Of a stretch of 64,000 nt of DNA, positions 3,684-64,000 are shown one piece after another; within the stretch, counting starts at the first letter, position 1; every line of letters starts with the position of its first letter. The stretch is from the NCBI GenBank assembly GCA_964350645.1, contig CAYGJY010000001.1:399939-463938 (forward strand), written 5' to 3'. This DNA comes from an uncultured Candidatus Saccharibacteria bacterium (GTDB lineage: Bacteria > Patescibacteriota > Minisyncoccia > Phycocordibacterales > UBA918). The notes below the pieces were generated by a model. It searched no databases. It was given only the letters and a program-made list of their open reading frames with translations, and was not told the origin of the DNA. The translations under genes and the position numbers were made by a program.

Positions 3684-4802
3684 CTAACCAGTCCAGTTGA
3701 AAAGCAAAATTGAGAAGTCTTCAATACCAACATTACCGTTACCGTTGATGTCTGCCGGCGGATTTGAATCACCACCTGGAGTTTGCCACCAAAACAACAA
3801 AATTGAAAAGTCGATCAGATCTACTTCCCCGTCACGATTAAGATCTGACGGGGTTGTGGCTCGCCCTTCTACTCCTACAAACAATGTGAGAGCTGTACTG
3901 AAGCTGCTCTCAGTTGTTAGTGCACCGGTACCCTGGACATACCGAGCTTTAGCAATATACTCCGCTGGACGTAAATCTGACGTCGAATAAGCAATTCCCC
4001 ATGTCCCGTTAGCCGCAGCGTCAAGTCTCGCAGCAACGTCATTGTTGATATACAACTGTACCTGACTGTTAGGGGCAGCCTGACCACTGAAGACAATAGT
4101 ATCACCTGGGTTAATTTCAACATTATCAGCTGCAATTGTTGGTGGCAATAATAACCCTCGCAGATTTGTTACGGCTCCTTGGGTAACATCGAAAGTAGTG
4201 TTGTAGGTGATTGAGCGTACTCCATTAACATCTGTGGACCAAAACCCCATTGTAGCGGCTCCTGGGGACGTCTCAATTGAAAATTCAAACTCTCCTCGAC
4301 TGTTAGCATTCACTCGACCAACCGCTTCTGCATCAAGAATAATATTAACTTGACGATTGGGATACGCGATACCTTCGACACTGATAGATGTGTCGCCAAA
4401 GTCAACGCTACTACCACCTCCACCCCCTGAACCACCTCCCGATGATCCTCCCCCGCCAGACCCAGCTGGTTCAATCGTACAGTCAGCCCCACAAAAATCA
4501 CCATCTTCATTGTTGCCGTCATCACATTGCTCACTAAAAATTGTTTGCAAAATACCATCACCACAATACGGTCCATACGAACAAATTGGAGTGCATTGTC
4601 TACCAACAATAGTTGTACTGTATACACCAGTTTCACCTGGTACATCACATTCTTCTCCAGTCTCTACTAGTGAATTTCCACAGTTAGTCACTTGTAGTGA
4701 CGTAGAAGCTACGCTCATTGTTTGAGCGTTAGAAAAATGACTTGGATGTGCCACACCAAGTAATACCAGTACGACACTGAAAACTAGTACAAACAATTTC
4801 AT
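3684..4802 (-). CDS. Secreted protein: Myxococcus-type Cys-rich repeat, Gly/Ser linker, Ig-like domains, C-terminal type-I dockerin
   Basis: 372 aa with a signal peptide. YCGDGILQTIFSEQCDDGNNEDGDFCGADC matches the CGDG...E.CDDGN...DGC...C repeat. A GGGGSSGGGSGGGGGSS linker follows. The C-terminal DLNRDGEVDLIDFSILLFWW...ADINGNGNVGIEDFSILLFNW is a duplicated Ca-binding dockerin segment. Confidence 0.7.
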   Translation of the reverse strand: MKLFVLVFSVVLVLLGVAHPSHFSNAQTMSVASTSLQVTNCGNSLVETGEECDVPGETGVYSTTIVGRQCTPICSYGPYCGDGILQTIFSEQCDDGNNEDGDFCGADCTIEPAGSGGGGSSGGGSGGGGGSSVDFGDTSISVEGIAYPNRQVNIILDAEAVGRVNANSRGEFEFSIETSPGAATMGFWSTDVNGVRSITYNTTFDVTQGAVTNLRGLLLPPTIAADNVEINPGDTIVFSGQAAPNSQVQLYINNDVAARLDAAANGTWGIAYSTSDLRPAEYIAKARYVQGTGALTTESSFSTALTLFVGVEGRATTPSDLNRDGEVDLIDFSILLFWWQTPGGDSNPPADINGNGNVGIEDFSILLFNWTG

Positions 4803-32067: not shown

Positions 32068-33597
32068 TTATTTCAGTATTTTCTTCACATCATTAATTTC
32101 TTTTTCGATTAGCGTCTCTGATACTTCAAGCGCCTGGTTCAATCCCTCAACTGCTTCTTTTTCTTTCTTAGACAGTCGAGGTCGTTTAGTGATGGTGTTG
32201 ATTTGATCATAAATTTCATCACGGAGGGCAGAGAAGATTTTTTCCATCTGATCTTGAATTTCACGGGTTTCCTTACGCAGCTTTTCTTCTGTCTTATTAA
32301 ATTGTTTTCGTTCGTAAATGATGTAGATAAATTGTAATACAACAAGTAGGAGCAAAACGATAATAAAGATATTTTTACCAGAGAAGAAATCCCAAATTGA
32401 AGACGCTTCAGCTAAGTCTGACGGCTTAATCCAACCAGCGGTGATAAGAACAGGAACCGTACTGACTGTTTTATTACCAGCCATGTCTGAAGCAGTTACT
32501 TTCACTGTATACGTACCATCTTCAAGATCTTTCAAGAGGTATCCCAGCTTGGCTTCGTCAGGTGTGACTTCAACTGGCTCTCCTCCAGCGATAATCATTT
32601 CATAACTTTCAATACCTGAAGTTTTGTCGATTGCTTCAAAGACTAACAACGGGAAACCAGTCTTACTATTAGCTGCCTGTACATCAATCTTAAATGCTTC
32701 TGGTGGCTGTGTGTCAATCTTAATTAATCGATTAGTGATACCCCCCCAGCCAACCTGGTTCTGGAATTGTACACTTAGGTACTGAATACCTTCGATTAAG
32801 TTTTCACTCGATACAACAAACTCTTCAATTGGTGGATCGAATACCTCTGACGGATCATTGTCTGACGAAGTTGCTAGTTCAACTGCCACTGCAGAAACGT
32901 CAAATGGTAGATCCCAAGCAAAGAGAGCATCAGTTTGGCTATACCAAGTGTCTGGATCGAGGAAAGCTTGCGAACCAACTTCTGGTGCACGAGGCGGATC
33001 TCCAAAAGCAATTGCAGCATTACTTTCTTCTGACTCAGGTTGTGGCGTGGTTGTTTGTTCTGGCTGAGCTACTGGTTCTGGTGTAGTAGCCGCTGCAACC
33101 GTAAAGGTTGCACCTGGTGAATTTTCTAGCACATCGGTACCACGCCCGTCAGCCGCAAGCGCTGAAGCATTATCAAATGAGACCGAACCCGAACCAACTG
33201 CATTGGCTCTAAAGGTCACTACCAAAAGTGACGATCTAGCGGTAAATGGTGTTGGACTACCCCCACCAAATTCAATCGTCCCAGCTGAGTTTGAGAAAGC
33301 TGGTTCTGTTGTCCAGAGTGAAAAAACCGAACCAGTTTTGGAAACATTGACGACTGACAATACTGCAGGGTCAAACGATAGTTTTGCCTCAACGGCATTA
33401 ACACTCGCACCATTTGGGACAGCCTGAATAGTGGCAGTAAACGTCTGACCAGCTGTGAATGAACCCGAGGCAGGAGAGATAACAACATCAGCTGCATCAG
33501 CCTGCGCAGCAAACAGAAAAAAAGCTGCAGCACACACGAGTGCCAAAACAAGTTTTTGTATTATTGAAAAATAAGAACGTACCCCAAAGACCACCAT
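32068..33597 (-). CDS. Secreted cohesin-like domain protein with Ig-like domain, C-terminal TM anchor and coiled-coil cytoplasmic tail
   Basis: 509 aa. The signal is LVCAAAFFLFAAQADA. The cohesin-like block is collinear with the 1..1095 paralog. TM is IFIIVLLLLVVLQFIYIIY, then a K/E-rich tail. Confidence 0.65.
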   Translation of the reverse strand: MVVFGVRSYFSIIQKLVLALVCAAAFFLFAAQADAADVVISPASGSFTAGQTFTATIQAVPNGASVNAVEAKLSFDPAVLSVVNVSKTGSVFSLWTTEPAFSNSAGTIEFGGGSPTPFTARSSLLVVTFRANAVGSGSVSFDNASALAADGRGTDVLENSPGATFTVAAATTPEPVAQPEQTTTPQPESEESNAAIAFGDPPRAPEVGSQAFLDPDTWYSQTDALFAWDLPFDVSAVAVELATSSDNDPSEVFDPPIEEFVVSSENLIEGIQYLSVQFQNQVGWGGITNRLIKIDTQPPEAFKIDVQAANSKTGFPLLVFEAIDKTSGIESYEMIIAGGEPVEVTPDEAKLGYLLKDLEDGTYTVKVTASDMAGNKTVSTVPVLITAGWIKPSDLAEASSIWDFFSGKNIFIIVLLLLVVLQFIYIIYERKQFNKTEEKLRKETREIQDQMEKIFSALRDEIYDQINTITKRPRLSKKEKEAVEGLNQALEVSETLIEKEINDVKKILK

Positions 33598-34144: not shown

Positions 34145-36049
34145 TTAACCTGTCCAGTTGAAAAGGAGAATCGAGAAGTCGGTCAACGACACCGTGCCAT
34201 CGCCGTTAATATCAGCTGGTGGATCAGAATCTCCACCTGCCCCGCCCCACCAGAAAAGTAAAATTGAGAAGTCGATCAGGTTAACACTGCCATCTCGATT
34301 TAGGTCAGGACTTAATTGCTGATCAGCTTCTTGTCCGACACCATAGTACGTATAGTTTGAAAAGTTAGTAGAAACTCCGCCTGACTGTACTGCCCTAGCA
34401 CGTACTTTATAGGTACCCTGAGTAAACCCAGCTGTGCTAATAACCGTAGACCACGCTCCCGAGCTGTTTGAAGTTGTTGTAAATGATTTGAGTGATAGAG
34501 CGGTTTTGTCGTTTTGATTTTCAACCGTTATGGTTGCATCCGGGATCGCAAATCCACTCACCGTCACTTGCGAACCGATTTCTACTGGATCAGGTCGAAC
34601 TAATATAGTGGGCATCACGTTTACGTTGGAGAGACTTGAAGTACGAGCTCCTTGCACTGAAAAGGACGTGCTAAAAGTACTCGACTTAATATTATTATCA
34701 TCAGTTGCGTACACACCAAAGGTATAGACACCGCGAGCTATTTCATCAATTGTGGCCGTAAATTCACCCCTATTATTTGCTCGCACTGTCTCAGCAATCT
34801 GCCCGTCAACCAAAATAGTAACATCTGCACTCGGGAACGAATATCCGTTAATGATTACCCGTCCATCTCCGCTACGAAAAGGGGCATCAGTACTTTCAAA
34901 GCCTCCACCACCACCTGAAGATGAATTTGATCCAGATCCTCCTCCACCTCCACCGCCTGAACCACCACCACCTGAGGTACTTCCACTAGTGCTAGCATCA
35001 CCGTCACTACCGCCAGTTTGTCCACCACCGCCATCTCCACTACCACTACCATCATTACCGCTACCAGTTCCATCACCGTCTACGTCACCCTCAGTATTCG
35101 GATCACCTTCGGGCACATCAAGAATCGTAAACGAGATTTCATAGTCGTCGATGTTAATGTTCCCTTCATCATCACGGCAACGTACATAGTATGTATATGA
35201 TGTGTTATTTGCTAAGCCTACAATCAGTTGCACATGTACAATTGAACCAGTGGTTTGGAATGTATCAGTCATAGCTGTAAATTCAACTCCCGGAGTAAGA
35301 CTATACCGACAAGCGGCAAACTCATTAGTTTCTAGCGAGAGTTCAACTGACAACGTGGTACCTCCGACATTACCTGTAGGCGCTCCGTTAAAGCGCTCAG
35401 GAGGGATCTCCTCAGTCGTATCAATTGGTCCCAGCGTTACTTCGTCAACTAGCGCAATTACAAAATTTGCATAGGCTGCTTGTGCACCACCCCCAATAGT
35501 AATTCTTGGTTTGTGTGTACCGGTAGTTGAGGCGTTTAATATCCCGATATCTTGCCCTAATGTTGTTGTCCCCGTAGAGGTACTAAAGACTGTATTACCG
35601 TTTCCTGCCCCTGAAGTATTAGTCCCAATTAACAACTGAACCTGGTCGCCACTAGTAATGCCAGTAGATGGATTAAGCGTGTACCTAATGGCCCCAGGCG
35701 TACCCGGAGTAATCAATACTGTGTCAGTAGTAGCATTGCCAACTGCTGCTGCTGTGCGCGCTGCACCATTTACCAACACCTCAACATTTCTAGCAGAAAA
35801 TGAAGAGGTAGATACAATCGTAAAGCCTGGCGGGGGCGTGAATTCAATATAACCACCAGGTGCAATTGACGTATCAATAGTAAATTCTAAATTATGATTT
35901 GAGTAGTCACCGGGAGTCGAATCTGAGATTGTGTCTCGATACGAAGAAATATTAAGCGCCTGTGCGACTGAACTGCCAAGCATGAAAAGTATCCCGAACA
36001 CCAGGAATGGTAAAACTATTTTTGCAACTTGTGAGAATCTACTACTCAT
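34145..36049 (-). CDS. Secreted protein with Ig-like domains, an extreme Gly/Ser linker and a C-terminal type-I dockerin
   Basis: 634 aa with a signal peptide. The linker is GSGSGDGGGGQTGGSDGD...GGGGSGGGGGGGSGSNSSSGGGGG. The C-terminal DLNRDGSVNLIDFSILLFWWGGAGGDSDPPADINGDGTVSLTDFSILLFNWTG is nearly identical to the dockerin of 3684..4802. Confidence 0.7.
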   Translation of the reverse strand: MSSRFSQVAKIVLPFLVFGILFMLGSSVAQALNISSYRDTISDSTPGDYSNHNLEFTIDTSIAPGGYIEFTPPPGFTIVSTSSFSARNVEVLVNGAARTAAAVGNATTDTVLITPGTPGAIRYTLNPSTGITSGDQVQLLIGTNTSGAGNGNTVFSTSTGTTTLGQDIGILNASTTGTHKPRITIGGGAQAAYANFVIALVDEVTLGPIDTTEEIPPERFNGAPTGNVGGTTLSVELSLETNEFAACRYSLTPGVEFTAMTDTFQTTGSIVHVQLIVGLANNTSYTYYVRCRDDEGNINIDDYEISFTILDVPEGDPNTEGDVDGDGTGSGNDGSGSGDGGGGQTGGSDGDASTSGSTSGGGGSGGGGGGGSGSNSSSGGGGGFESTDAPFRSGDGRVIINGYSFPSADVTILVDGQIAETVRANNRGEFTATIDEIARGVYTFGVYATDDNNIKSSTFSTSFSVQGARTSSLSNVNVMPTILVRPDPVEIGSQVTVSGFAIPDATITVENQNDKTALSLKSFTTTSNSSGAWSTVISTAGFTQGTYKVRARAVQSGGVSTNFSNYTYYGVGQEADQQLSPDLNRDGSVNLIDFSILLFWWGGAGGDSDPPADINGDGTVSLTDFSILLFNWTG

Positions 36050-36054
36050 ACTCT

Positions 36055-36855
36055 TTATTGTACACAGCGAAAGCCAATCGCTGCACCCTGCATCGTTGGT
36101 AACGTAGCAGCGTGCACGCTATGCACCCCTGCATCATTACCACTACCATAAAACCCGCCACGCATCATAGCGAATGCCCCCTCCGCTTCAGACCAGACGT
36201 AATCTGCAAAAAATTGTTCAACCGGGGTACTGCTACTCATCGTTGCTACCCCGCCACGATCAACCTGACTTACGTATCCACTGTCTGGCAGCAGTCGGCC
36301 ATTATAAACACCGTCAAAAATATCGTCGTGGGTCCACTCCCACACATTACCGATCGCATCATAAGCCCCGATAGCCGAGCGGCACCCATCTGAACTACCG
36401 GTTTCAGCGATCGATCGAGTATCAGTGTTGCAAACGTCTGTATCAGGTGTACCAACTGCAAGTAACTGCCATTCTTCACTTGTTGGCAAGCGCTTTCCGG
36501 CTCGAACACACGCCAATTGGGCTGATTCACGATCAACATGGCGCCAAGGCTCTACTTCTGCTTTTGAGTCAGCCCAACAGGCGGTGTCGGTCAAATTTTT
36601 CTGGGTATCAAATTGGTTCATTGGTTGCACAACAGGGCATTCTTCATTGGGAGAAGCTTCATACTGGTCTACACACCGAAAGGTAGTAGCGGCCGGAACC
36701 GTCAGCATGCCTGCTGGGCAGGTTCCGGCCGTACTCCCCGCCAGCTGTCCTAGCAACGTGCCGCTCGTGCCTTGCAGGGTATCAGCCGCATCAATTCCAA
36801 GCGCAGTAATCACCACCGCACCAAAAATAACGCCCCCGGCTTTAAGCCATTTCAT
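36055..36855 (-). CDS. FGE-sulfatase (SUMF1/C-type-lectin fold) domain protein with N-terminal TM/signal; paralog 1 of 3
   Basis: 266 aa. The key motifs are CPAGMLTVPAATTFRCVDQYEAS, GNVWEWTHDD and RGGFYGSGNDAG...GFRCVQ. Confidence 0.75.
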   Translation of the reverse strand: MKWLKAGGVIFGAVVITALGIDAADTLQGTSGTLLGQLAGSTAGTCPAGMLTVPAATTFRCVDQYEASPNEECPVVQPMNQFDTQKNLTDTACWADSKAEVEPWRHVDRESAQLACVRAGKRLPTSEEWQLLAVGTPDTDVCNTDTRSIAETGSSDGCRSAIGAYDAIGNVWEWTHDDIFDGVYNGRLLPDSGYVSQVDRGGVATMSSSTPVEQFFADYVWSEAEGAFAMMRGGFYGSGNDAGVHSVHAATLPTMQGAAIGFRCVQ

Positions 36856-36900
36856 AGCTTTATTATACGCGCTGTAAACTAAGAAATAGTGAGTATTCCC

Positions 36901-37776
36901 CTAATGTAGCAGAGCTAAGGCTGCGATGGATAATATGATGGCCGTTACTTTTCGTGCGTTCCAGTGTTCGTTGTAGAAAATGATGGAAAGGATGATAGGG
37001 ATGAGGATGTAAAGCGAATTTATGGTGTACACAATGCCGAGTGGGCCTCCATGACCATACGCGTACACTCCGCTACCGACACCGATACTAATACTGACAG
37101 CACGCCAAGAAATGAACCACATATACGACCGTGTGAAAATTTCTGCCGATACAATCGTTTTTTTCTTTATAAAAGCTGCGACGCCAGAACCCACCAGAAC
37201 CCCAGCCTGCATACATAACAAAACCCAAAACACCACATCACCCAAACCAGTGGCATACTTCTGTAATACAGCTGCCATCGTCGTTAGAACTGCAGTTACC
37301 CCAATTAATACTAACCCGAGACGCAAATTTGTCTGCCGGCTATTTTCAGCTGCTGAGATCAGCAATAATGGCACAATCAAACTGAGGATTAGCCCGACCC
37401 ATTCAATATTCGTAAAGGATTCTTGAAATAAAACAATTCCAAAAATAACTGCCAAGAATGGCGACGCCACTTTAAAAAGAGGAAAATAAATAGACGAATC
37501 AATACTTCGAAGGGCTGCAATTTTTAGAGTTGCCGAGATAGATATAATTAGTCCAGATAAAAAAGAGACAGCTGTCACTACAGGTGTCAGCACAGCAATT
37601 CCATCTACAACAAAAGCCAATGGCACAAAAATTATCAGTGTCAAAATACTCGATGTAAAGACAAGCGCTGACGAATGATAATTACGGTGGGCCGCTACTT
37701 TTATAGAAAAAGCACCAATCCCACCAAACAAAGCTGAGGAAAGCGCTGCTACAAACCACAATTCCATCCCAAACAT
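36901..37776 (-). CDS. EamA/DMT-superfamily 10-TM transporter, tandem copy 1
   Basis: 291 aa and all-TM. It starts MFGMELWF and ends ILSIIFYNEHWNARKVTAIILSIAALALLH, like copies 2 and 3. Confidence 0.75.
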   Translation of the reverse strand: MFGMELWFVAALSSALFGGIGAFSIKVAAHRNYHSSALVFTSSILTLIIFVPLAFVVDGIAVLTPVVTAVSFLSGLIISISATLKIAALRSIDSSIYFPLFKVASPFLAVIFGIVLFQESFTNIEWVGLILSLIVPLLLISAAENSRQTNLRLGLVLIGVTAVLTTMAAVLQKYATGLGDVVFWVLLCMQAGVLVGSGVAAFIKKKTIVSAEIFTRSYMWFISWRAVSISIGVGSGVYAYGHGGPLGIVYTINSLYILIPIILSIIFYNEHWNARKVTAIILSIAALALLH

Positions 37777-37782
37777 ATCCGT

Positions 37783-38664
37783 CTAGTGTAGCAGACCCAG
37801 CGCTGCGATGGATAATACAATAGCGGCTACTTTGCGGGCGTTCCAGTGTTCGTTGTAGAAGATAATTGAAAGCACAATTGGGATGAGGATGTAGAGTGAC
37901 TGGATAGTATAGACAATCCCAAATGGACCATACAAAAATGCAAAAAAGAGAGCCCCTACTCCGCCAGCATTAAACAGACCCATGAACAGAGAGAAACCAA
38001 CAAAGCTAGGGGTGATACTAACTAATACAGAACCATCAAGCTTTGACCTATTTTTATAAATAGTAAGAACTGTGGCGCCAATTGCTGTAGCCAGCGTAGC
38101 TACGGCAGTAAACAACCAAACATTACTTACTGCGTCGACACCAAATTTTGAAATTGCAGCTACTATCAAGGCAACGAGCGAAGCCAGTACTAAGAGTTGC
38201 AGTCCACGAATCAGGTTTTTCTGTCGCGACTGTTCCGCATTTGTGACAAGAAATAGTGGGACCAGGATGCTGATACCAAGTCCAATAACTTCAGTTGTTG
38301 TAAAGCGTTCACCCAACCACAAAATCCCAAATAAAACTGCCAGCAACGGCGTCAATGTTTTGTAGATTGGGTAAAAAATTGCGGTATCAATACACTGCAG
38401 CCCCTTATGCCTAATCATGTTACCAATCAAATATAGTAAACCTGAGGCCAGGGCATATAAAAAAAGTTCGAGTGTAAAACCACTATAATCAGACCAGAAG
38501 AAAGTAGCTACAAACAAGAGCAGTGCCGAGAAATACATCGGCACAGTGTTTACGAGCACAACATCATAATCTCTTTCTACTCCAACTTTTACAAGAAAAA
38601 CAAACAATCCGCCGGAAATAGCGGAGATAATAGTGAGAACAAACCACAATTCCATCCCAAACAT
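37783..38664 (-). CDS. EamA/DMT-superfamily transporter, tandem copy 2
   Basis: 293 aa with MFGMELWF...ILSIIFYNEHWNARKVAAIVLSIAALGLLH. It starts 6 bp after the stop of copy 3. Confidence 0.75.
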   Translation of the reverse strand: MFGMELWFVLTIISAISGGLFVFLVKVGVERDYDVVLVNTVPMYFSALLLFVATFFWSDYSGFTLELFLYALASGLLYLIGNMIRHKGLQCIDTAIFYPIYKTLTPLLAVLFGILWLGERFTTTEVIGLGISILVPLFLVTNAEQSRQKNLIRGLQLLVLASLVALIVAAISKFGVDAVSNVWLFTAVATLATAIGATVLTIYKNRSKLDGSVLVSITPSFVGFSLFMGLFNAGGVGALFFAFLYGPFGIVYTIQSLYILIPIVLSIIFYNEHWNARKVAAIVLSIAALGLLH

Positions 38665-38670
38665 ATTTGC

Positions 38671-39546
38671 TTAGTGTAACAGACCTAACGCCGCGATGGA
38701 TAATATTATGGCTGCTATTTTGCGGGCGTTCCAGTGTTCGTTGTAGAAAATGATGGAGAGGATGATTGGAATGAGGATGTAGAGGGAGTTGATAGTATAA
38801 ACAATGCCAAGTGGGCCGTCGGCAATAGCAAACACCAAGGTCGCAAAGCCAGTTACTTGGAATAAAGACATCCAGGCAATCAGCGTAAGAAACTCTGTGT
38901 TTTTTAATTTTTGTAATCGAACTATCAATGGTTGTTTTGTTTTCTGAATCAGCAAAATTGTCATCCCTGCCACAGCTACACCCAGATCAGTTAAGAAAAT
39001 AAATAACCACGTATTTTCAGTGCCACCAGTGCCATATTTAATACTAATGGTCGCAATCACTGCCAAAAATGCAGCTCCGAGGAGTAATCGAAGACCACGC
39101 ACTAAATCTCTTTGTCTTGATTTTTCAGCTTTAGAAATAAGTAATAATGGAACTAATAAACTTAGCACTAAGCCTATCCATTCAATAGGAGTAAAAGTTT
39201 CAGCAAACAAAAAGATACCAGCAATAATGGTCAAAGCGGGTGTAATCGTTTTATAAATTGGGTAATAAATAGCCGTATCTATACACTGCATAGCATTATG
39301 GCGCAGTATATTTACCCACATGTAACTTACTGAATTGACGATTGCCACCACAAGCATCAGTCGACTAAAACCAGTAAAATCGCTAAATATCAATGTGGCA
39401 AAGAAAAATAATATTGCAGAAGCGGTCAGTGAGGCTGTGCTCATCAAAACTACATCATAATTGCGTTCAGCAGCAATCTTGGTAATAAAAATAAACAAAC
39501 CGCCCAAGATGGCGGAAAGCACGGAAAGTAAAAACCATAATTCCAT
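38671..39546 (-). CDS. EamA/DMT-superfamily transporter, tandem copy 3
   Basis: The ORF-track start is 39627, but the ATG at 39546 gives MELWFLLSV, matching the paralog N-termini and avoiding overlap with the divergent Ham1 gene. It ends ...ILSIIFYNEHWNARKIAAIILSIAALGLLH. Confidence 0.7.
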   Translation of the reverse strand: MELWFLLSVLSAILGGLFIFITKIAAERNYDVVLMSTASLTASAILFFFATLIFSDFTGFSRLMLVVAIVNSVSYMWVNILRHNAMQCIDTAIYYPIYKTITPALTIIAGIFLFAETFTPIEWIGLVLSLLVPLLLISKAEKSRQRDLVRGLRLLLGAAFLAVIATISIKYGTGGTENTWLFIFLTDLGVAVAGMTILLIQKTKQPLIVRLQKLKNTEFLTLIAWMSLFQVTGFATLVFAIADGPLGIVYTINSLYILIPIILSIIFYNEHWNARKIAAIILSIAALGLLH

Positions 39547-39586
39547 AGAAAGAGTATAACTGAAAATTGCTTGATATACTGTAGTT

Positions 39587-40171
39587 ATGAACTGCACGTA
39601 TATCACTGGTAACCCTGAGAAAGCCAAGCGCTTCAGCAGACACCTCGGTATGGAGTTGGCACATCAAGCGCTTGATATCCCTGAGATTCAGTCGCTGTCG
39701 ATTGATGAGGTGGTGGAAGCGAAAGCGCGAAGCGCCTTCGCTTCCCTAGGCTCACCGGTAATTGTTGAGGACACCGCCCTCACCTTCACTGCTCTAGGTC
39801 AGCTCCCTGGCACATTTATTAAGTTCTTTTTAGACTCAATGTCTATCGAGGAAATCACACAGCTAGTCCCAGCAGATAATCGAACTGCCTACTGTGAAGT
39901 AGCTATTGCGTATTACGACGGTGACCGTCTAGAGGTTGCAAAAAGTCATGTTCCTGGAACAATCGCGGAAGCACCCCGAGGAACTGGTGGCTTCGGCTGG
40001 GATGCAATCTTTATTACCGACGAACATCCTCATCAGACCATGGCTGAACTCTCAGAAACTGAGTATGAAACCATATATGCCAAAACGATAAAACCGTTTA
40101 CCGCCCTACGCAAAATATTAGATTCACTGTCTAAAGATCAAATACACAGCGAAAACCAATTGCACCACTAG
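39587..40171 (+). CDS. Non-canonical purine NTP pyrophosphatase (Ham1/RdgB/ITPase family)
   Basis: 194 aa. MNCTYITGNPEKAKRF matches the family start (ATGN.gK). VEDTALTFTALGQLPGTFIKF matches DDSGL.v.ALgG.PG.YSARf. EAPRGTGGFGWDAIFI matches EP.GTGGFGYDPIF. This is the only clear plus-strand gene inside the array, and its 3' end overlaps 40131..40952 by 41 bp. Confidence 0.75.
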   Translation: MNCTYITGNPEKAKRFSRHLGMELAHQALDIPEIQSLSIDEVVEAKARSAFASLGSPVIVEDTALTFTALGQLPGTFIKFFLDSMSIEEITQLVPADNRTAYCEVAIAYYDGDRLEVAKSHVPGTIAEAPRGTGGFGWDAIFITDEHPHQTMAELSETEYETIYAKTIKPFTALRKILDSLSKDQIHSENQLHH

Positions 40172-40952
40172 AAAACGACGGGCTTGTCTTCAAGTGGGCA
40201 CTATATATACCAGCATCTTCCCCACTTCCGTAAAATCCACCGCGCAGTAGGGTGTAATTACCTACTTGGTCAGACCAGAAATAATCATTGTTATAGAGAT
40301 CATTTGGTGTATCACTGGTAGCAGCAGCGATGCCAGTCATATCAGCCTCAGTGACGTAACCTTGCTGAGGCACTGGTCGAGCGTTATATGTGCCTTCAGA
40401 TATTTCTTCATCTACCCATTCCCAGGCATTACCAATCATGTCGTACACCCCTCTAGCTGAGATACACGTTACCCCATTACCAGCTACTTGTAATGAACCA
40501 TTGCCAATGTTGCAGGCGTCTGTATCGGGAGTACCTAGGGCGGCTTCATACCACTCAAGACTTGTCGGCAACCGCATTTCTCTTGCAGCACATAGTTCTT
40601 TAGCTTGATGAAAGGTGACCTGTACCCACGGCAACTGCTTAGGGACTGACTCTGCCCAGCAATCTTCAGACCCAAGATTTAACTTAGTATCCAAAGCAGA
40701 ATTTGGGATTTGCATTGGACAATCTATATATGGACTAACTTCATACTGATCAATACAAAAATATCTTTCACCCAAGCTCACTTCTGCCATTCCTTCTGGA
40801 CAGGTGGCCTTAATACTATTTTGTACTAGACTGCTCAAGGCTGAATTTGAGCCGCGCAGTGCATCAGTCGCATCAATACCAAGACTGGTAAGAACAACGA
40901 TGCCAACAGTCACTAACAAAAAGCGTAGCGAGTTTTTAATAACCTTCCCCAT
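40131..40952 (-). CDS. FGE-sulfatase/C-type-lectin-fold domain protein with N-terminal TM; paralog 2
   Basis: 273 aa with CPEGMAEVSLGERYFCIDQYEVS, GNAWEWVDEE and RGGFYGSGEDAG...GFRCVFDL. Confidence 0.75.
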   Translation of the reverse strand: MGKVIKNSLRFLLVTVGIVVLTSLGIDATDALRGSNSALSSLVQNSIKATCPEGMAEVSLGERYFCIDQYEVSPYIDCPMQIPNSALDTKLNLGSEDCWAESVPKQLPWVQVTFHQAKELCAAREMRLPTSLEWYEAALGTPDTDACNIGNGSLQVAGNGVTCISARGVYDMIGNAWEWVDEEISEGTYNARPVPQQGYVTEADMTGIAAATSDTPNDLYNNDYFWSDQVGNYTLLRGGFYGSGEDAGIYSAHLKTSPSFSSGAIGFRCVFDL

Positions 40953-40983
40953 GTACGTACAGTATAGCTAACCTAAACTCATC

Positions 40984-41793
40984 TTAGATATCTTGTACAC
41001 AGCGGAAACCCACTCCTGCAGTTTTAAAGTTGAGGTCGACAGCGGCGTTTAAGGTAAACAGTCCAGCATCCGCCTGACTACCATAAAAACCACCACGCAG
41101 AATTCCACGAACCCCATTATCACTCGTCCAAGCGTAATCTTCACCATATTCTGCAGCTGGCAAGGGTGCTGTTTCTAACACCACTCCATTTGTATCCACT
41201 AAGGATACATAGCCTGAAGATGGGAGGTCTCGGTTTTCATACTGACCATCAATCACCTGACCGTCTACCCATTCCCAGACATTGCCTACCATGTCGTGAA
41301 TACCTGAAGGTGTTTCACATTCGCTAGCACCGGTTAATTGCACATCATCTTCGGTGAGACCTATCGCACACTGACTGACATCACTCATACCTAGCACTGC
41401 TTTATACCATTCTTCGTTACTTGGTAATCGTTTACCTGACCGTGCGCACAGTTGTTGTGCCTGTGTAACACTGACAAAGCGCCACGGTGTCACTCCAGCC
41501 GCAGACTGCGACGTACACGTTACATCAGTGAGATTTCTCAGTGTATCGATTTCATTCTGTGGGTCATTCACAACGCAACTCGGCGCTGGACTTGCTTCAT
41601 ACGTATCTACACATAAAGCGTGATCACCAAGCTGTAAGATCACTGCCGAATCACCACAAATGCCGCCACTTTGATTCACTAAACCGACTAAATTTCCATC
41701 AAGCCCCCGCAACACATCACTTGCGTTTATTGCTAACGTAGAAAATCCAATTGCTCCTACTACAACGAGAACCGATTTAAGCCGGCGATTCAT
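40984..41793 (-). CDS. FGE-sulfatase/C-type-lectin-fold domain protein with N-terminal TM; paralog 3
   Basis: 269 aa with ALCVDTYEASP, GNVWEWVDGQ and RGGFYGSQADAG...GFRCVQDI. Confidence 0.75.
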   Translation of the reverse strand: MNRRLKSVLVVVGAIGFSTLAINASDVLRGLDGNLVGLVNQSGGICGDSAVILQLGDHALCVDTYEASPAPSCVVNDPQNEIDTLRNLTDVTCTSQSAAGVTPWRFVSVTQAQQLCARSGKRLPSNEEWYKAVLGMSDVSQCAIGLTEDDVQLTGASECETPSGIHDMVGNVWEWVDGQVIDGQYENRDLPSSGYVSLVDTNGVVLETAPLPAAEYGEDYAWTSDNGVRGILRGGFYGSQADAGLFTLNAAVDLNFKTAGVGFRCVQDI

Positions 41794-49761: not shown

Positions 49762-52700
49762 TTATGGAAGCTCAGGAAAAGCTTGGATTCCAGGACATTT
49801 CATGTCATTGATCTTCCAACGGGTAGTCTTGAAGACGTAACCACTCGGAGTCAGGTCATAACTTGGATCGACTGCAACCCATGGTAGCAGAATCTCTGAA
49901 GAATATACCTGCTGAAAAGCTTTAACATTGTTTTCAGTTGTAATGTCGAACACTCCTGTGTAAGGGGTTATAAATCCCTGTTCATTAAGGAAGGTTTGCA
50001 ATTTAGTTACCTGCAATACGTCATTAACTTGACCAGATTTCATGTACTCCGTTAAGTAGAGGTCACACTGATTACTGGTAGTAACTCCAAGTACTTGGGA
50101 TTCTGATTCAGTAGAAATTGAAGCACCAGCCACAATCCCAGCTTGTGCAGACCCTCCACCACCGCCACTCATCTCTCTAACTTCTACTGCAGTGGAACAG
50201 GTCACCGTCTCTTCACCGTTAATGGCGGTCAGGGTATACGTAACAGTTCCTTCATTAACTGGGACATTTACTTGAATTGATCCATCACTTGCAACTGCCC
50301 CAATGTTAGTATCAATGACAACCGAATCTGCATCAGTTGTATTCCAACTTAAGATAATCGGATTCCCAACATCGACAAGTGATCGATTAGTGGTGAAGGA
50401 ATCACATGCGAGGGTGCTCTCCGACACCTCGGGCTGACTTTCTTCATAGTTTCCAAAGTTACATTCATAGAATGAAACTTCATTTTGTGGAATATTGAAT
50501 TCACAGACACCTAGTTCCGAATCTGGTGCAGACTGAGTCCAACCAATTTGTTGCACCTCACTAACTGTCCAGTCACCAGCTTCTACCTGAAATTCGTAGT
50601 TACCTTCACCATCTGTAGTAGTTTCAAGTAGTGTTTCTCCATCAGAAGCCTGAATAGTCCAGCCATTTAGGGTTGGTTCTTCTTCGTCCCAAATACCATC
50701 TTCATCGAGGTCATTCCATTTCGCACCCTGAATTGTGTAGGTCAATGGACAGTTGTACTCATCTCCTAGTCCTACCTCGACAGACACGCCATCATTACCA
50801 GTGTCGACTCGCATATCGAATTCAATTGATTCATCGGTTTTATCAAAGATGTCAATAAATGCTGGTGACTTATCTTCTAGTTTGAATGACGGATTCGGTG
50901 ACCGATCTATCTTACCGAGGTCAATACCAATTGTCTCGATTGAACCAGCCACAATGTCAATCTGACGACTTTGATTGTCCCCAGTGAATGCTAACTTAAG
51001 CTCGCTATTTTCCTGGTTTCGCTCAACAGCTAGACCTTGTACGCCATTTGCTAACGTGTTGAAAGCTAGGTCACCAACTTCATTAAAGTTAAACCAAGTT
51101 CCGCTTGGAATAATATTATCTTCAGCACCAAGGTAAATTTGACCATCAAATGAAACCGATTCTGTTTCATTTAATGTAATTTTGACAAGTTTCTCTGCTG
51201 AACACTGGTTTTCAAACAAACAGTATTCTGTACAACCTTCATCCCCAATCTCACACTGCTCCCAACTGTTAGCTCCCTCTGTCTGTACAATGCCATCTCC
51301 ACAGTATGCACCGTAGACAACTTCAACAATGTTCTCAAGGAAAAATGGCTGAGTTTCACGCAGATTTGGACCTGAACTTTCGTTCGGATTAGCAATAAAG
51401 CAGTACTGACCGTCAGCCAGAGCTGACATATCAACTGTCGCTCCAAATGACGCACCGTCAAAGCTGCTGACGTCAGTAAAGCCATCAACGTTACCAGCAA
51501 CAGTCGTACCGCCAATACCACAATCCCCAGTTCGTACCGCCCACTGCATCGTATCTGGTGTGTCATCACCGTCTACATATTCAGCCGCAAACGAAACTAT
51601 GCCTGATAGAGTTTGATCAGCCGTCTCTGGATTTGTGATAACAAGTGAAGCATCCGGTCGCTCAACAACTTCAATGTCGTGGAACTTATATCTGAAGTTA
51701 CCTTCAGTATCAAATGCTTGTGCTTTGAGGCGATAAAAACCTGCTGTAAGAGCGTCTACGGCAAATGACCATAAGTTTGTGCCAATAGCTGTACCACTAT
51801 CTACTGAAGCAACATAATCACCTCCTAACGTATCGATCTGAGTTACGGTATAAAGCACATCCTCAATCTCTGACTGAGCGTCACTGGCAGTACCAGTAAC
51901 AGTAAACGGATCGTCAGCTACGACTGCACCGTTGGCAGGAGAAGTAATAACTACGTCTGGCTTGGTGATATCTGGCTCGACGATCACAAACGATTTCACA
52001 TGGTTTCCGCCACCGTTATTGTTTCCAACCGTGTCAGAGCTGAGCACAGTCACACAGTATCGTCCTGGAAGAAACGCACTGACATCAAACGTAGTTGAAA
52101 ACGCTCCTGTTTCACCGACTGTTGCATCGGCTGAACTTACAAAGGCACCACACTTACCGTTTTCTTTAAGTGGACGCAAGTGAACTGCTACTTGATCACC
52201 CTCAATGCCAGCGGGGTCAGTAGCTGAACCAGTTACGGTCACTTCCTGACTGATCACCTCATCGACGACTGGAGTGTTAATCGTGATGGCTGGTCCAGTA
52301 GTATCAATTGTAAATAGTCTTGAGACAGTATTACTAATGTTTCCAGCTGCATCACGAGCATTAGCTTTGTAGCCAAATTCTCCCTCACCAAGCGCTGCTA
52401 CCGAAACTGTACAGCTAGCATCGTAGGTAGTAACAGCTCCAGTTGGTTCATTTAGACATGAGGCTAAATTAGCACCATTTTCATCTTTTAGGTTAACCAC
52501 AACAGAAGCCAGTTCTTCATTGTCGGTTGCTTGAATGACAATATCGAAGTCTGCATTGGTGACAAAACCATTCTCAGGTTCAATCACGGTCATGGTCGGC
52601 TTACCGGTATCTGGCTCTGGTTCAAAGTCCCAAGTAGTGATTGCTGAAGCCGTTTCGAGAACAACATTGTCATAATATCCAGCCAAACCCTCATCTGAGT

Positions 52701-54018
52701 CAGTTGTGTCACCCACGCTAAGTGAGAAGAAATACACAAAACTACCAGCTGGCATTTCAGCTAAAGTCGCTGGACAATTAGCGATCCGTACTCCTCGCTT
52801 CGAGACATTTACTGGAGTGTCAGTCGCGTCAAAGGTGACGGTGGTAAAGTCAGCCGTTGATCCAGTGCTTGGGACATAGTCAAATCGACAATCAAAGAAG
52901 TTCTGTGACTCATCGATATTTGTGTAGACATTCAGATAGAACTCGTTAGCATCACCACTATTGCCATTACCGGCAATCTTAAAGTCGTAGGTGAAGCTAT
53001 CAATATCTTCTACCGGTACCTGGATGAAGTTTTCGCCAATAAATTTATCGGCTGGTACGTCAGACACTGGACCGACAAATAGTGACCCATTACCAATACT
53101 TGCGTCATCGTCATTAAACTCGAATATAGTTGTTGAATCACGGTTGAACAACCAACCACCATTTTCCAGTGTGAAGTCATCTCCTGTTACCACGATTGTA
53201 TTTTCATCCTTTGGTATAGGCGCCTGAACGTCAAACCGAGTCCAGTTAAATCGCTCATCCGTTTCTGCACCAAATGATAATCGTACTTCCACAAAAGCAT
53301 TCGCTGAAAGAGTTACCTGCTTTGTCTCGTTGGTGACACACACAAATGGGTATAGCCCATCAGTGATTTCAGGATTGAAGTTGACGCCACCGTTAGTTGC
53401 GATTATTTGTGAAGTGTCGCCATCAGTTCGATACTCAAAACATGAAGCAAAATTTCGCGTTGAGACAAAATCAAGTGTTATTTCACCTGGTGCTGAGGCT
53501 GTTTCTTCCACATACGCAAACCCAGCCGTAGTATTTATTGCATTGGTACTTGGAAAGACTGAACTAGTAGTATTTTCTTGAACCTCAACGGTTACAGTAG
53601 CATCAGCCCCAATTTGGGTTCCGCCTGGTCCGTCGAGTAGTTGAACAGTAATAGTGTAGTCACCAGCAGTAGGATTGCTATAACAAATTCCTTTGTTTTC
53701 ATCTATTGCAAACTCGCTATCTACAGTAAGGCTATTACATTCACCACCGATTGTACCTGAGAAAAATGAACCACCACCATCGTCTGAAACCGCTACTACG
53801 GTGCCTGCTGTACGTGTTGTGTCGTCAGTGGTGACCGTCGCGACAAAATTAACTTGTTCATCAACAAGCGCAGTGAGTGTTGATTCATTAGTCGTGACGC
53901 CCGTACTGGCCGCAAAGGCGACAAAAAAAGACGCCGGAAAAGCGCTAAGTAGAAGAGAAAGCATAGTCGCCAAAGCAACAATACGAACTGAAATGAGTCG
54001 GGGGTTAATAAAAGCCAT
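49762..54018 (-). CDS. Large secreted surface protein (1,418 aa): multiple Ig-like domains, Myxococcus-type Cys-rich repeat, CnaB/SdrD-B-like domain, C-terminal peptidoglycan-binding (PG_binding_1-like) domain
   Basis: It has a signal peptide. The Cys-rich repeat is YCGDGIVQTEGANSWEQCEIGDEGCTEYC. GAKWNDLDEDGIWDEEEPTLNGWTIQASDGETLLETTTDGEGNYEFQVEAGDWTV resembles CnaB/SdrD-B. The C-terminal LTEYMKSGQVNDVLQVTKLQTFLNEQGFITPYTGVFDITTENNVKAFQQVY resembles PG_binding_1. Confidence 0.7.
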   Translation of the reverse strand: MAFINPRLISVRIVALATMLSLLLSAFPASFFVAFAASTGVTTNESTLTALVDEQVNFVATVTTDDTTRTAGTVVAVSDDGGGSFFSGTIGGECNSLTVDSEFAIDENKGICYSNPTAGDYTITVQLLDGPGGTQIGADATVTVEVQENTTSSVFPSTNAINTTAGFAYVEETASAPGEITLDFVSTRNFASCFEYRTDGDTSQIIATNGGVNFNPEITDGLYPFVCVTNETKQVTLSANAFVEVRLSFGAETDERFNWTRFDVQAPIPKDENTIVVTGDDFTLENGGWLFNRDSTTIFEFNDDDASIGNGSLFVGPVSDVPADKFIGENFIQVPVEDIDSFTYDFKIAGNGNSGDANEFYLNVYTNIDESQNFFDCRFDYVPSTGSTADFTTVTFDATDTPVNVSKRGVRIANCPATLAEMPAGSFVYFFSLSVGDTTDSDEGLAGYYDNVVLETASAITTWDFEPEPDTGKPTMTVIEPENGFVTNADFDIVIQATDNEELASVVVNLKDENGANLASCLNEPTGAVTTYDASCTVSVAALGEGEFGYKANARDAAGNISNTVSRLFTIDTTGPAITINTPVVDEVISQEVTVTGSATDPAGIEGDQVAVHLRPLKENGKCGAFVSSADATVGETGAFSTTFDVSAFLPGRYCVTVLSSDTVGNNNGGGNHVKSFVIVEPDITKPDVVITSPANGAVVADDPFTVTGTASDAQSEIEDVLYTVTQIDTLGGDYVASVDSGTAIGTNLWSFAVDALTAGFYRLKAQAFDTEGNFRYKFHDIEVVERPDASLVITNPETADQTLSGIVSFAAEYVDGDDTPDTMQWAVRTGDCGIGGTTVAGNVDGFTDVSSFDGASFGATVDMSALADGQYCFIANPNESSGPNLRETQPFFLENIVEVVYGAYCGDGIVQTEGANSWEQCEIGDEGCTEYCLFENQCSAEKLVKITLNETESVSFDGQIYLGAEDNIIPSGTWFNFNEVGDLAFNTLANGVQGLAVERNQENSELKLAFTGDNQSRQIDIVAGSIETIGIDLGKIDRSPNPSFKLEDKSPAFIDIFDKTDESIEFDMRVDTGNDGVSVEVGLGDEYNCPLTYTIQGAKWNDLDEDGIWDEEEPTLNGWTIQASDGETLLETTTDGEGNYEFQVEAGDWTVSEVQQIGWTQSAPDSELGVCEFNIPQNEVSFYECNFGNYEESQPEVSESTLACDSFTTNRSLVDVGNPIILSWNTTDADSVVIDTNIGAVASDGSIQVNVPVNEGTVTYTLTAINGEETVTCSTAVEVREMSGGGGGSAQAGIVAGASISTESESQVLGVTTSNQCDLYLTEYMKSGQVNDVLQVTKLQTFLNEQGFITPYTGVFDITTENNVKAFQQVYSSEILLPWVAVDPSYDLTPSGYVFKTTRWKINDMKCPGIQAFPELP

Positions 54019-61414: not shown

Positions 61415-63196
61415 CTACTTTGCTTTCTTTCGTTCACTTTCCTTCAGACCTTGCTTCCGTAAGCGGATTGATTGTGGGCAGACTTCAAGATATTCATCTT
61501 GCTGAACAATTTCTAGTCCAAGTTCGATAGACAGTGGCCGATGTGGCGTGAGTACAGTCGCATCATCACTTCCAGACGCACGCATGTTGGTAAGTTGCTT
61601 TCCTTTAGTTGGATTCACAATCATCTCTTCTCCCTTACTCGTGTTACCGATCACCATTCCTTCATACACTTCTGTACCAGCACCAATGTAGAGCTCACCT
61701 CGGTCCTGTAGACCCATCAGACCAAAGCCAAGGGCTTTTCCAGTTGCCATTGACGTCATTGAGCCAACTTGTCGTTTCTTGATCTCGCCAGCGTATGGTC
61801 GGAACTCAAGGAAGCGTGAAGCTAGAATACCTTCACCTTTCGTATCAATAATAAATTGGTTTTTATACCCAAGGAGACCGCGAGTTGGACCTTCAAAAAG
61901 AAGTCGCACTTGGTTCTCATGTGGCACCATGTTTTGCATGATGAAGCCTCGGTTTGAGAGTCGTTCAATAACTGAACCTTGGTATTCACTTGGCACATCG
62001 ATCGTTACCTCTTCAAACGGCTCACTCTTTACGCCATCAACATCTTTCACAATTACTTGCGGCTGAGAAACTGAGAGCTCATACCCTTCACGGCGCATGT
62101 TTTCAAGCAGAATCGAAATGTGCATTTCTCCCCGTCCTTTTACTTCGTACGTATCGCCATTGTTTACTACCTGGAGACCAACGTTGATTTCAAGCTCTTT
62201 TTCAAGGCGCTCACCAATCTGACGACTGGTGACATACTTCCCTTCGCGACCAGCAAATGGTGACGAGTTCACCAAGAAGGTCATTGCCACAGTTGGTTCA
62301 TCAACTGAAATTTCTGGTAACAGCTCAACTCCCTCAACATCTGAGATTGTTTCACCGATATTGATATCTTCGAGTCCGGCAATCAGTACGATGTCGCCTG
62401 CAAACGCTTCGTCAAGCTCAACTTGCTGCACTCCTTTGTAGCCTGAAAGCTTAACCACCTTTCCTTTCTTAGTCGGGCCCTCGTGCGAAGCGATCACCAC
62501 TTGTTGTCCCTTCTTAATTTTTCCGTCATAAATCCGAGCCACCGCCAAACGGCCCAGGAAGTTGTCGTAGCCAAGGTTAAATACCTGCGCGCGAAGAGAT
62601 TCACCTTCAACATAGCCCTTTGAGGCTGGTACATGTTCAAGAATTGTATCGAGGACTGGTGAGAGGTCTTTCATTTCGTCAGCCATATTGCGCTTCGCGA
62701 GACCATCACGACCAATCGCGTACACCACTGGGAAATCAGACTGCTCATCTGAAGCGCCAAGCTCGAGAAAGAGTTCAAGGACTTGTTCTTCACACCGATC
62801 CGTATCAGCCGCTGGCTTATCGATCTTGTTGACGATCACAATTGGCTTCAAGCCAAGTTCAAGGGATTTTTTCAGCACAAAGCGCGTTTGCGGCATTGGA
62901 CCTTCCTGCGCGTCTACGACGAGGAGTACTGAGTCAATTGAACGCAACACTCGCTCCACTTCAGAGCCGAAGTCGGCGTGACCAGGGGTGTCGACGATGT
63001 TGATTTTGGTGTCTTTGTATTCTACAGAGGTATTCTTAGCATAAATGGTAATTCCCCGCTCTTGCTCGAGCGCGTTATTGTCCATCGACGCGTCCCCTTG
63101 GCGTGAACCAGTGAATTCCATCAAACCATCGGTCAAAGTAGTCTTTCCGTGGTCAACGTGGGCAATAATAGCAATGTTTCGAATTGGTTGGCTCAT
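61415..63196 (-). CDS. typA: Translational GTPase TypA/BipA
   Basis: 593 aa with MSQPIRNIAIIAHVDHGKTTLTDGLM (G1), DTPGHADFGSEVER, NKIDK and the EF-G-like domain order typical of BipA. Confidence 0.9.
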   Translation of the reverse strand: MSQPIRNIAIIAHVDHGKTTLTDGLMEFTGSRQGDASMDNNALEQERGITIYAKNTSVEYKDTKINIVDTPGHADFGSEVERVLRSIDSVLLVVDAQEGPMPQTRFVLKKSLELGLKPIVIVNKIDKPAADTDRCEEQVLELFLELGASDEQSDFPVVYAIGRDGLAKRNMADEMKDLSPVLDTILEHVPASKGYVEGESLRAQVFNLGYDNFLGRLAVARIYDGKIKKGQQVVIASHEGPTKKGKVVKLSGYKGVQQVELDEAFAGDIVLIAGLEDINIGETISDVEGVELLPEISVDEPTVAMTFLVNSSPFAGREGKYVTSRQIGERLEKELEINVGLQVVNNGDTYEVKGRGEMHISILLENMRREGYELSVSQPQVIVKDVDGVKSEPFEEVTIDVPSEYQGSVIERLSNRGFIMQNMVPHENQVRLLFEGPTRGLLGYKNQFIIDTKGEGILASRFLEFRPYAGEIKKRQVGSMTSMATGKALGFGLMGLQDRGELYIGAGTEVYEGMVIGNTSKGEEMIVNPTKGKQLTNMRASGSDDATVLTPHRPLSIELGLEIVQQDEYLEVCPQSIRLRKQGLKESERKKAK

Positions 63197-63402
63197 ATAC
63201 TAAATAAAATGATAAATAAAAAGGAGCCTTAGCTCGGCTCAATATTGGCAGCATCATACTGTGGAAACAGGGTTTTGTCGAGTAATGATTGTCAAATTTC
63301 TAAATAGCTGTACTATGTCGAAACCCGACAACATGTGTGTAATTGCGTTAGTCGGTAGAGACTCTTCAGCCTGTTTCAGTACTACGAAGAGTTCTCCGTG
63401 TG

Positions 63403-63445
63403 AGAGGCCGGTCATTCATCTGCCACCCCAAGTGACCGGCCTCTC
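63403..63445. other. GC-rich 13-bp-stem hairpin in the typA upstream region
   Basis: GAGAGGCCGGTCA-17 nt-TGACCGGCCTCTC. Its function is unknown; it could be a terminator, attenuator or ncRNA element. Confidence 0.4.
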
Positions 63446-63551
63446 CATGGACTTGTTCTTCGTCGAATCTTCGTGCTTCAAGCAATCCAGCTTGGAGCAT
63501 TGTCGTTTTTAGATACTTAGAATGTCCCATTTAAATAGTAGACAAGAGAAA

Positions 63552-63596
63552 GGGCCGCGCGAATGTGTGGAGGCCCTCCTCCTATTCGCGCGGCCC
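63552..63596 (-). terminator. GC-rich compound hairpin immediately downstream of the GC-rich minus-strand ORF
   Basis: GGGCCGCGCGAAT-19 nt-ATTCGCGCGGCCC is a perfect 13-bp stem. The loop contains a nested GGAGG/CCTCC stem. It marks the boundary where base composition changes. Confidence 0.55.
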
Positions 63597-63609
63597 GTGG
63601 GCCGCTTCT

Positions 63610-64000
63610 TCATTTCCGCTTCCACCACCAGACGCCGAAGCTAAGCAGCCCGACCGGCAGCAGCAGCCCAGCTGCCGGGAGCGGAACTGCCGTGGTGCCG
63701 CCATCATTGTCGATCCGCCAATCGTAGTTGACGATGACGACGACCGTTGGATCTACACCTCTGGGATCATTTTCATCCCGTGGCGGCTGTACCACCACGA
63801 CCGGGATGAAATCCAGCGGTGAGCCACCAAAGCCACCACCTTCCCCGAAACCCCCGCCAGCGAAGACCAGCGGGAAGGTGTCCGACGTCTGTGGCGGTGC
63901 CGGAGCGATTGCTCCAGGCGGCGGGAGGGGCGTTTTCCGCCCCACCCAATTGCCACACGTGAACACTTTGATCAGCTCATAGAGCCAACCTTCGTGCTCG
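63610..64000 (-). CDS. 3' end of a GC-rich ORF (N-terminus beyond the window) encoding a Gly/Pro-rich protein with a PEP-CTERM-like C-terminal sorting signal
   Basis: The translation reads ...GGGFGEGGGFGG...VIVNYDWRIDNDGGTTAVPLPAAGLLLPVGLLSFGVWWWKRK-stop. It has VPLP, a hydrophobic helix and KRK, the PEP-CTERM architecture. The codons are GC3-rich (ccg, ggc, gtc), unlike the rest of the window. Confidence 0.5.
   Translation of the reverse strand, partial: EHEGWLYELIKVFTCGNWVGRKTPLPPPGAIAPAPPQTSDTFPLVFAGGGFGEGGGFGGSPLDFIPVVVVQPPRDENDPRGVDPTVVVIVNYDWRIDNDGGTTAVPLPAAGLLLPVGLLSFGVWWWKRK

Follow-up and report, generated by a model that had tools for sequence, protein, structure and literature searches.

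In CPR bacteria, surface proteins are the obvious candidates for recognising the host, and the systems closest to the locus studied here are two types of C-terminal surface signal and one type of genomic islet. PEP-CTERM and VPLPA-CTERM signals are tripartite, with a short motif, a hydrophobic helix and a basic cluster at the extreme C-terminus of the protein; the VPLPA-CTERM model (TIGR03370) was built from proteins of Proteobacteria. A search of the literature on PEP-CTERM and exosortases in CPR bacteria returned no reported exosortase system for Paceibacteria. LPXTG signals likewise combine a motif with a hydrophobic segment and a basic end. Strain-specific, laterally acquired islets are recognised by their composition together with presence/absence between strains, and by a mobility signature (integrase or transposase, tRNA target, terminal repeats).

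The locus lies at the end of the window, the whole stretch of 64,000 nucleotides that was analysed, and consists of a cassette of about 990 bp with a single gene. It shares with strain-specific islets the atypical GC, GC3 and tetranucleotide composition, the presence/absence between strains that are 97% identical, clean intergenic boundaries, an own terminator and a surface-protein cargo. It differs from them in that the cassette ends without integrase, tRNA, repeat or duplication and adjoins a small GIY-YIG gene that stands alone and is native in composition. In relatives, the cargo family also recurs in this same neighbourhood, and the event may be an allele replacement rather than the gain of a new function.

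The window as a whole has about 45% GC, and the abrupt switch to GC-rich DNA with GC3-biased codons that the original prediction described at its end is readily confirmed: the last 449 nucleotides (63552-64000) have a GC content of 0.635, compared to a mean of 0.449 for all other 449-nucleotide windows (sd 0.030, maximum 0.541; z=6.3). The remaining window had been called AT-rich, and this is correct only in relation to the GC-rich segment. In the minus-strand ORF, GC3 reaches 0.67 over the 130 codons that lie inside the window and 0.69 over the complete gene, while the values of the 36 other genes of the window lie between 0.30 and 0.47 and none of 15,292 in-frame native windows of 130 codons exceeds 0.562. 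As the GC3 of the gene exceeds that of every native window, its amino acid content (Gly, Pro and Ala) cannot alone explain the bias. The full cassette (positions 1940-2929 of an independent contig, L083, described below) has a GC content of 0.614, and the comparison of tetranucleotide frequencies that had been proposed with the prediction clearly sets it apart: its L1 distance from the window mean is 0.684, compared to 0.321±0.033 for native chunks (z=11).

The GC-rich gene is encoded on the minus strand. The window contains its 3' 391 nucleotides (63610-64000; 129 codons and the stop codon TGA at 63610-63612), with the ORF open at the window end, and the translation of this part reads ...GGGFGEGGGFGG...TTAVPLPAAGLLLPVGLLSFGVWWWKRK*, which is the Gly/Pro-rich C-terminus and the very ending that had been predicted. 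The full gene has 843 nucleotides (280 amino acids) and runs about 450 nucleotides past the end of the window (start at L083:2029, equivalent to window position 64452); its product was called as a protein of 270 amino acids (P0139), with the 280 amino acids counted from an ATG that is preceded, within the cassette, by the Shine-Dalgarno-like sequence AAAGGTG.

A 13-bp hairpin had been predicted at the composition switch and is indeed present: the arm GGGCCGCGCGAAT at 63552-63564 pairs with ATTCGCGCGGCCC at 63584-63596 to form a perfect outer stem of 13 bp. The arms extend to 22 nucleotides with 86% complementarity, and the fold energy is -42.2 kcal/mol (z=-3.7 compared to shuffled sequences). 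On the minus strand, the foreign segment ends with this hairpin (63552-63596), which has the features of a Rho-independent terminator of the cassette gene, with a GC-rich stem-loop 14 nucleotides after the TGA that is followed by the U-rich stretch UUUCUCUU; the transcribed strand just past the hairpin reads UUUCUCUUGUCU. A simple terminator scanner did not list this minus-strand hairpin, because the loop or the inner stem is over its limits and the U-tract is interrupted. The T-rich tract TTTCTCTTGTC (63541-63551, minus strand) provides the first native bases past the cassette.

An independent copy of the locus was found in assemblies of single sequencing runs. A protein search with typA identified near-identical TypA proteins (100% after rounding) in the Logan single-run assemblies, and cluster look-ups of the upstream proteins of a sister strain led to the contig L083 (run ERR3534981, 4,279 bp). 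Over 1,799 nucleotides (62202-64000), L083 matches the window at 100% identity, and it contains the GC-rich gene in complete form, in the gene order 206-aa gene, 216-aa gene, Zn_ribbon, GIY-YIG, GC-rich gene and typA. After 990 bp the contig returns to native DNA and the cassette thus has native flanks on both sides; the far flank, on the side of the GIY-YIG gene, is 97.6% identical to the sister strain contig L081. At the assembly level, the junction is therefore reproduced and the return to native DNA is seen, with both junctions spanned by this one short contig, which possibly comes from the source genome's own study.

The sister strain (L081/L082, runs ERR3534978/ERR3534979) has 97.1% nucleotide identity to the window between 53881 and 63551, diverges completely beyond this position and lacks exactly the cassette of about 990 bp. 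At its empty site, the stop codon region of the GIY-YIG gene, TGAATTCA, runs directly into TTTCTCTTGTCTAC, the sequence that follows the hairpin in the window. This comparison places one breakpoint between 63551 and 63552, at the base of the terminator hairpin, where homology to the sister strain begins; the other, about 540 nucleotides past the window end, lies exactly 8 nucleotides after a stop codon, with an ambiguity of 2 nucleotides (TT). There is no target-site duplication, terminal repeat or mobility gene at the ends of the cassette and no tRNA in the window; the sole nearby nuclease is the GIY-YIG gene, which is native in composition and lies outside of the cassette. The GC-rich end of the window is thus a genuine, strain-specific single-gene cassette, an ordinary gene difference at the strain level.

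The native side of the locus is marked by typA, encoding a translational GTPase (61415-63196, minus strand), whose best relatives in species-representative genomes have 83-91% amino acid identity and all come from MAGs of Patescibacteria (with labels such as Kaiserbacteria, Paceibacteria and Nomurabacteria); typA identifies the genome as Patescibacteria/Paceibacteria-like. Downstream of typA, the gene order is shared with these relatives. Between typA and the cassette is the native typA leader, or intergenic region (63197-63540, minus strand), of normal composition. About 300 nucleotides of this leader next to the cassette have only 76-84% identity to the sister strain, compared to about 98% elsewhere; this could reflect a recombination tract or relaxed constraint on non-coding DNA, and at least one other short stretch is as divergent from the sister strain. 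On the other side, the variable spot is bordered by the stand-alone GIY-YIG gene of 84 amino acids (PF01541, 68.9 bits; L083:1678-1932, equivalent to window positions of about 64549-64803), both here and in a distant relative (L090). When the whole non-coding region upstream of typA is regarded (63197-63551, minus strand, about 355 nucleotides), it contains a perfect 13-bp stem (GAGAGGCCGGTCA/TGACCGGCCTCTC) and could be a structured typA leader, a small RNA or a recombination tract. Rfam has no family for this leader; searches with leader and hairpin returned matches at chance level only.

Public NCBI data place typA and P0139 on a contig of 464,680 bp (P0139 also occurs in Logan) and the proteins left of the cassette on a separate one of 449,760 bp; for the GIY-YIG protein, no copy is recorded at NCBI. 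The public assembly therefore probably breaks within or close to the GIY-YIG gene, about 0.5-0.8 kb past the end of the window. A break at this position is expected where cassette-bearing and cassette-free strains occur together in a sample series.

P0139 has four parts: a Sec-type signal peptide (MFRSLGFLALMLVGTPASA), a domain of about 130 amino acids, a Gly/Pro-rich stretch of about 80 amino acids and a tail of 25 amino acids. Pfam and NCBIfam scans of the full protein identified no domain. With an alignment of seven sequences, AlphaFold predicts a confident α/β core (pLDDT 70-95 for residues ~40-170), compared to a pLDDT of 34 from the single sequence; no significant match for the domain was found in the PDB, either by structure (Foldseek) or by sequence profile. 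From its architecture, P0139 is most likely displayed at the cell surface on a flexible stalk, and would be held by its C-terminal helix or possibly processed there by an enzyme.

The tail (VPLPAAGLLLPVGLLSFGVWWWKRK, 63613-63687, minus strand) resembles a tripartite sorting or anchor signal, with a VPLPA motif, a hydrophobic helix of about 18 amino acids and KRK. Its sequence, VPLP-AAGLLLPVGLLSFGVWWW-KRK-stop, has the tripartite layout of PEP-CTERM signals, including the position at the extreme C-terminus, the [VI]P-x-P motif with small residues behind it, the helix of about 18 amino acids and the terminal basic cluster. Scores of the curated models are all low: the isolated tail reaches 14.5 bits with PF07589 (cutoff 20.7) and 13.8 bits with TIGR03370 (9.7 bits for the whole protein, cutoff 25.35), the latter in spite of its literal VPLPA. 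TIGR02595 gave no reported match for P0139, and the best curated model for the isolated tail is TIGR01167 (LPXTG), with 15.3 bits just under its cutoff of 15.9. As the tail stays below every curated cutoff, we use 'PEP-CTERM-like' to describe its layout and assign it to none of these families. The tails of two homologs of P0139 behave differently from each other with TIGR02595: P0145 passes (19.5 bits, cutoff 16) and P0140 scores 13.7 bits. The original prediction of a PEP-CTERM-type tail was thus right about the layout, which recurs in the six homologs with a complete C-terminus and in P0145 reaches a curated family; the tail of P0139 itself falls short of all thresholds.

Differences to canonical PEP-CTERM proteins are also obvious: the Glu of PEP is replaced by Leu or Val throughout the P0139 family, the genome of P0139 is that of a Patescibacterium with a Gram-positive-like surface repertoire, and neither exosortase nor sortase domains were found in the 20 window proteins scanned. 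The 10 kb upstream in the sister strain have no recognisable sortase or exosortase. A nearby rhomboid protein was considered as rhombosortase and rejected, as it scores 38 bits (cutoff 84) and is a generic rhomboid. When the C-terminal ends of 4,296 ORFs from the window and related loci (~1.3 Mb) were scanned with a regular expression, the tail type was found only in the P0139 family, with the exception of one short and probably spurious ORF. Similarity to LPXTG proteins is of a different kind: in the tail of P0139, a hydrophobic segment and a basic end come after the sequence LPAAG, and the family member P0143 has a sortase gene two genes away (on contig L089). However, the motif of P0139 has no Thr, its Gly position is W or L in homologs, the hydrophobic segment that follows is short (~15 aa), and P0143, the very member next to a sortase, does not have the tail.

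An exhaustive HMMER search of 1.84 billion representative proteins identified seven remote homologs of P0139, with E-values between 1e-8 and 6e-4 and identities of 29-40%. A word-indexed protein search found no match to the 129-aa fragment, and among 5.8 billion clusters the full P0139 matched only itself. P0139 was aligned with six homologs and with P0147, the full-length form of P0141, which is truncated by an adapter; the internally repetitive P0144 was left out. Invariant in this alignment are W-x3-G-x3-C-x5-C, P-x2-V, G, Y and C-G-N. The tail is present in six of the seven aligned family members (P0139 included) in the form [VI]P[VL]P-[AGP][SA]-hydrophobic-basic, and the second Pro of its motif is an invariant column.

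Genomic contexts were recovered for five of the seven homologs (all but P0144 and P0146), and all five are Paceibacteria-like, four of them from the same typA/pseudouridine-synthase neighbourhood as in the window. P0140 (L085) is accompanied by a typA of 80% identity and by LRR, pseudouridine-synthase and sigma/anti-sigma genes, as in the window. P0142 (L086-L088) directly follows a homologue of the 216-aa gene and precedes the pseudouridine synthase. P0141 (L090) is found behind a conserved three-gene block and GIY-YIG, the same arrangement as in the window strain. In L091, a contig of 1.16 kb with 61% GC, the C-terminal part of typA (GC3 0.79) is followed by the gene for P0145. The last one, P0143 on the short contig L089, has the sortase gene two genes upstream and no neighbours in common with the others. 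Composition of the family gene is native in L086 and L090; in L085 and L089 its GC3 is above that of the neighbouring genes (0.67 versus 0.50-0.62 and 0.75 versus 0.59-0.69, respectively). As far as can be seen from the contexts recovered, the P0139 family is rare and appears to be restricted to Paceibacteria.

Two observations from these contigs are of more general nature. L091:1-1157 comes from a close relative of the clade that appears to have about 61% GC on this contig and carries the family gene right after typA; base composition across this group of Paceibacteria seems to span at least 36-61% GC. L090:4290-4335 ends in a Nextera adapter (CTGTCTCTTATACACATCT), which causes a false C-terminus (…CGLSLIHI*) for P0141: this is an adapter-contaminated public contig.

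Taken as a whole, the data are best explained by a real, strain-specific surface-protein cassette that was probably imported laterally from a higher-GC relative within the clade. The cassette comprises the gene, an upstream region with AAAGGTG and, at the other end, the terminator hairpin. It lies in a Paceibacteria (CPR/Patescibacteria) genome, in a variable intergenic spot with the small GIY-YIG gene on one side and the typA leader on the other, and would have been placed there by import or by allele replacement, with a higher-GC relative within Paceibacteria as the likely source. A lateral import is most likely because the GC3 of the gene (0.69) fits to higher-GC members of the clade and not to its own genome (~0.37). 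The original prediction had offered a horizontally acquired gene as one of its explanations, and both the composition and the presence/absence between strains of 97% identity support this. No donor was found in the collections searched: the closest relative is 35% identical and there was no nucleotide match. An exact 35-mer from the GC-rich part had no match in genome_contigs, metagenome_contigs or viral_contigs, tblastn and blastn searches of fragment and cassette against 80 typA loci had no match, and neither had tblastn searches of phage and plasmid collections. A hand-made degenerate motif of the family matched the fetched loci and nothing in metagenome or viral contigs. Orthology of the GC-rich ORF to a conserved gene of about 220 amino acids upstream of typA in relatives was considered and rejected, as only the generic TM tail aligns.

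A possible, if clearly less probable, alternative is that the gene is an ancestral resident of the spot between GIY-YIG and typA that was deleted in L081/L082, with its foreign composition resulting from an older allele replacement or from a gene-specific bias. The locus is occupied in distant relatives, after GIY-YIG in L090 and after a gene of the 216-aa family in L086, the TT at the boundary is a 2-nucleotide microhomology that suits a deletion as well as an insertion, and the elevated GC3 of the family genes of L085 and L089 over their neighbours would agree with a bias of the gene itself. As the family is found at the same locus in distant relatives, and in L086 and L090 with native composition, the polymorphism could equally be caused by a deletion in the sister strain. 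However, a GC3 of 0.69 in a genome of 0.37 cannot last long without amelioration, and the native composition in L086 and L090 argues against a bias inherent to the gene. Moreover, the alternative concerns the polarity of the event only, and a foreign origin of the window allele is still required; the gain of the cassette in this strain is putative, as is the donor.

An import from outside of the CPR is improbable. The original prediction regarded the tail as typical of Gram-negative bacteria and as out of keeping with what the window otherwise encodes, and a high-GC, Gram-negative donor with an exosortase/PEP-CTERM system, for example the host of the episymbiont, would explain the PEP-CTERM/VPLPA layout of the P0139 tail, the fact that the P0145 tail passes TIGR02595, and the 62% GC, which is typical of many Proteobacteria. 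Yet the homolog search that had been proposed for the GC-rich ORF points elsewhere: no homolog with a non-CPR context was found among the 1.84 billion representatives or the 5.8 billion clusters, and every context of the family that was recovered (five of five) is Paceibacteria-like. High-GC members of the clade do exist (L091), and a diderm donor is thus not needed to explain the composition.

The mis-assembly or chimeric contig end that the original prediction also considered, with DNA of a high-GC organism misjoined near the hairpin to the end of a Paceibacteria contig, can be dismissed as very unlikely: every compositional measure does switch abruptly, close to the end of a public contig and with the left-side proteins on a different NCBI contig, and the partial ORF alone matched no homologs, but a different assembler and run repeat the junction base for base and continue into native DNA after one complete gene, homologs are present at the same locus (one of them directly after GIY-YIG) in Paceibacteria assemblies from unrelated projects, and a chimera would have needed two joins at one intergenic point, with breakpoints exactly 8 nucleotides past a stop codon and at a terminator base, enclosing one intact gene.

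Laterally imported or not, the end of the contig is not contaminated, and the sequence of the window is therefore reliable as far as base 64000. As strain-level variation the feature is of an ordinary sort, and its cargo is mildly unusual. It provides a modest but clean case of gene flux among strains of an uncultivated, episymbiotic lineage: a single surface-protein gene with the base composition of an outsider differs between strains that are 97% identical, and relatives keep divergent versions at the same place. A PEP-CTERM-like anchor in a Gram-positive-like envelope also raises the testable question of which enzyme, if any, recognises the anchor. A wider and rather doubtful proposal can be made: Paceibacteria, which have no outer membrane, may possess a small family of surface proteins that is confined to the clade, evolves fast and uses a PEP-CTERM-like VP[VL]PAS anchor. 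Its alleles would be exchanged, at a fixed hot spot beside the GIY-YIG gene, between clade members that are only distantly related and differ in composition, and P0139 might be a strain-specific determinant of host attachment. A role of GIY-YIG in making the spot recombinogenic is speculation.

The surface repertoire of the window is Gram-positive-like, with WxLIP_PGBD, PG_binding_1, dockerin and cohesin domains and a giant protein of 6,659 amino acids, in agreement with the background of WxL and PG_binding domains that had been described for it. The giant protein is encoded by a single ORF of native composition (11983-31959, minus strand), and the genes around it encode dockerin (3687-4802 and 34148-36049), cohesin (32071-33597), fn3 and Ig-like domains; the region resembles a large cluster of genes for surface proteins or adhesion. 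Next to it, at 36901-39627 (minus strand), are three EamA-type transporter genes with near-identical C-termini (…IFYNEHWNARK…), which are part of tandem sets of paralogs (36058-41793). These sets also include two genes with an FGE-sulfatase domain (36058-36855 and 40134-40952, minus strand) and a putative third paralog (40984-41793, minus strand), assigned by its similar C-terminus alone. A second strain-variable segment of a surface protein is found within the gene at 49762-54018, which encodes a large surface protein of 1,419 amino acids with Big_7, SdrD_B, Gmad2 and PG_binding_1 domains: in the region 53881-52600, identity to the sister strain changes from about 97% to about 660 unalignable nucleotides and then to 87%.
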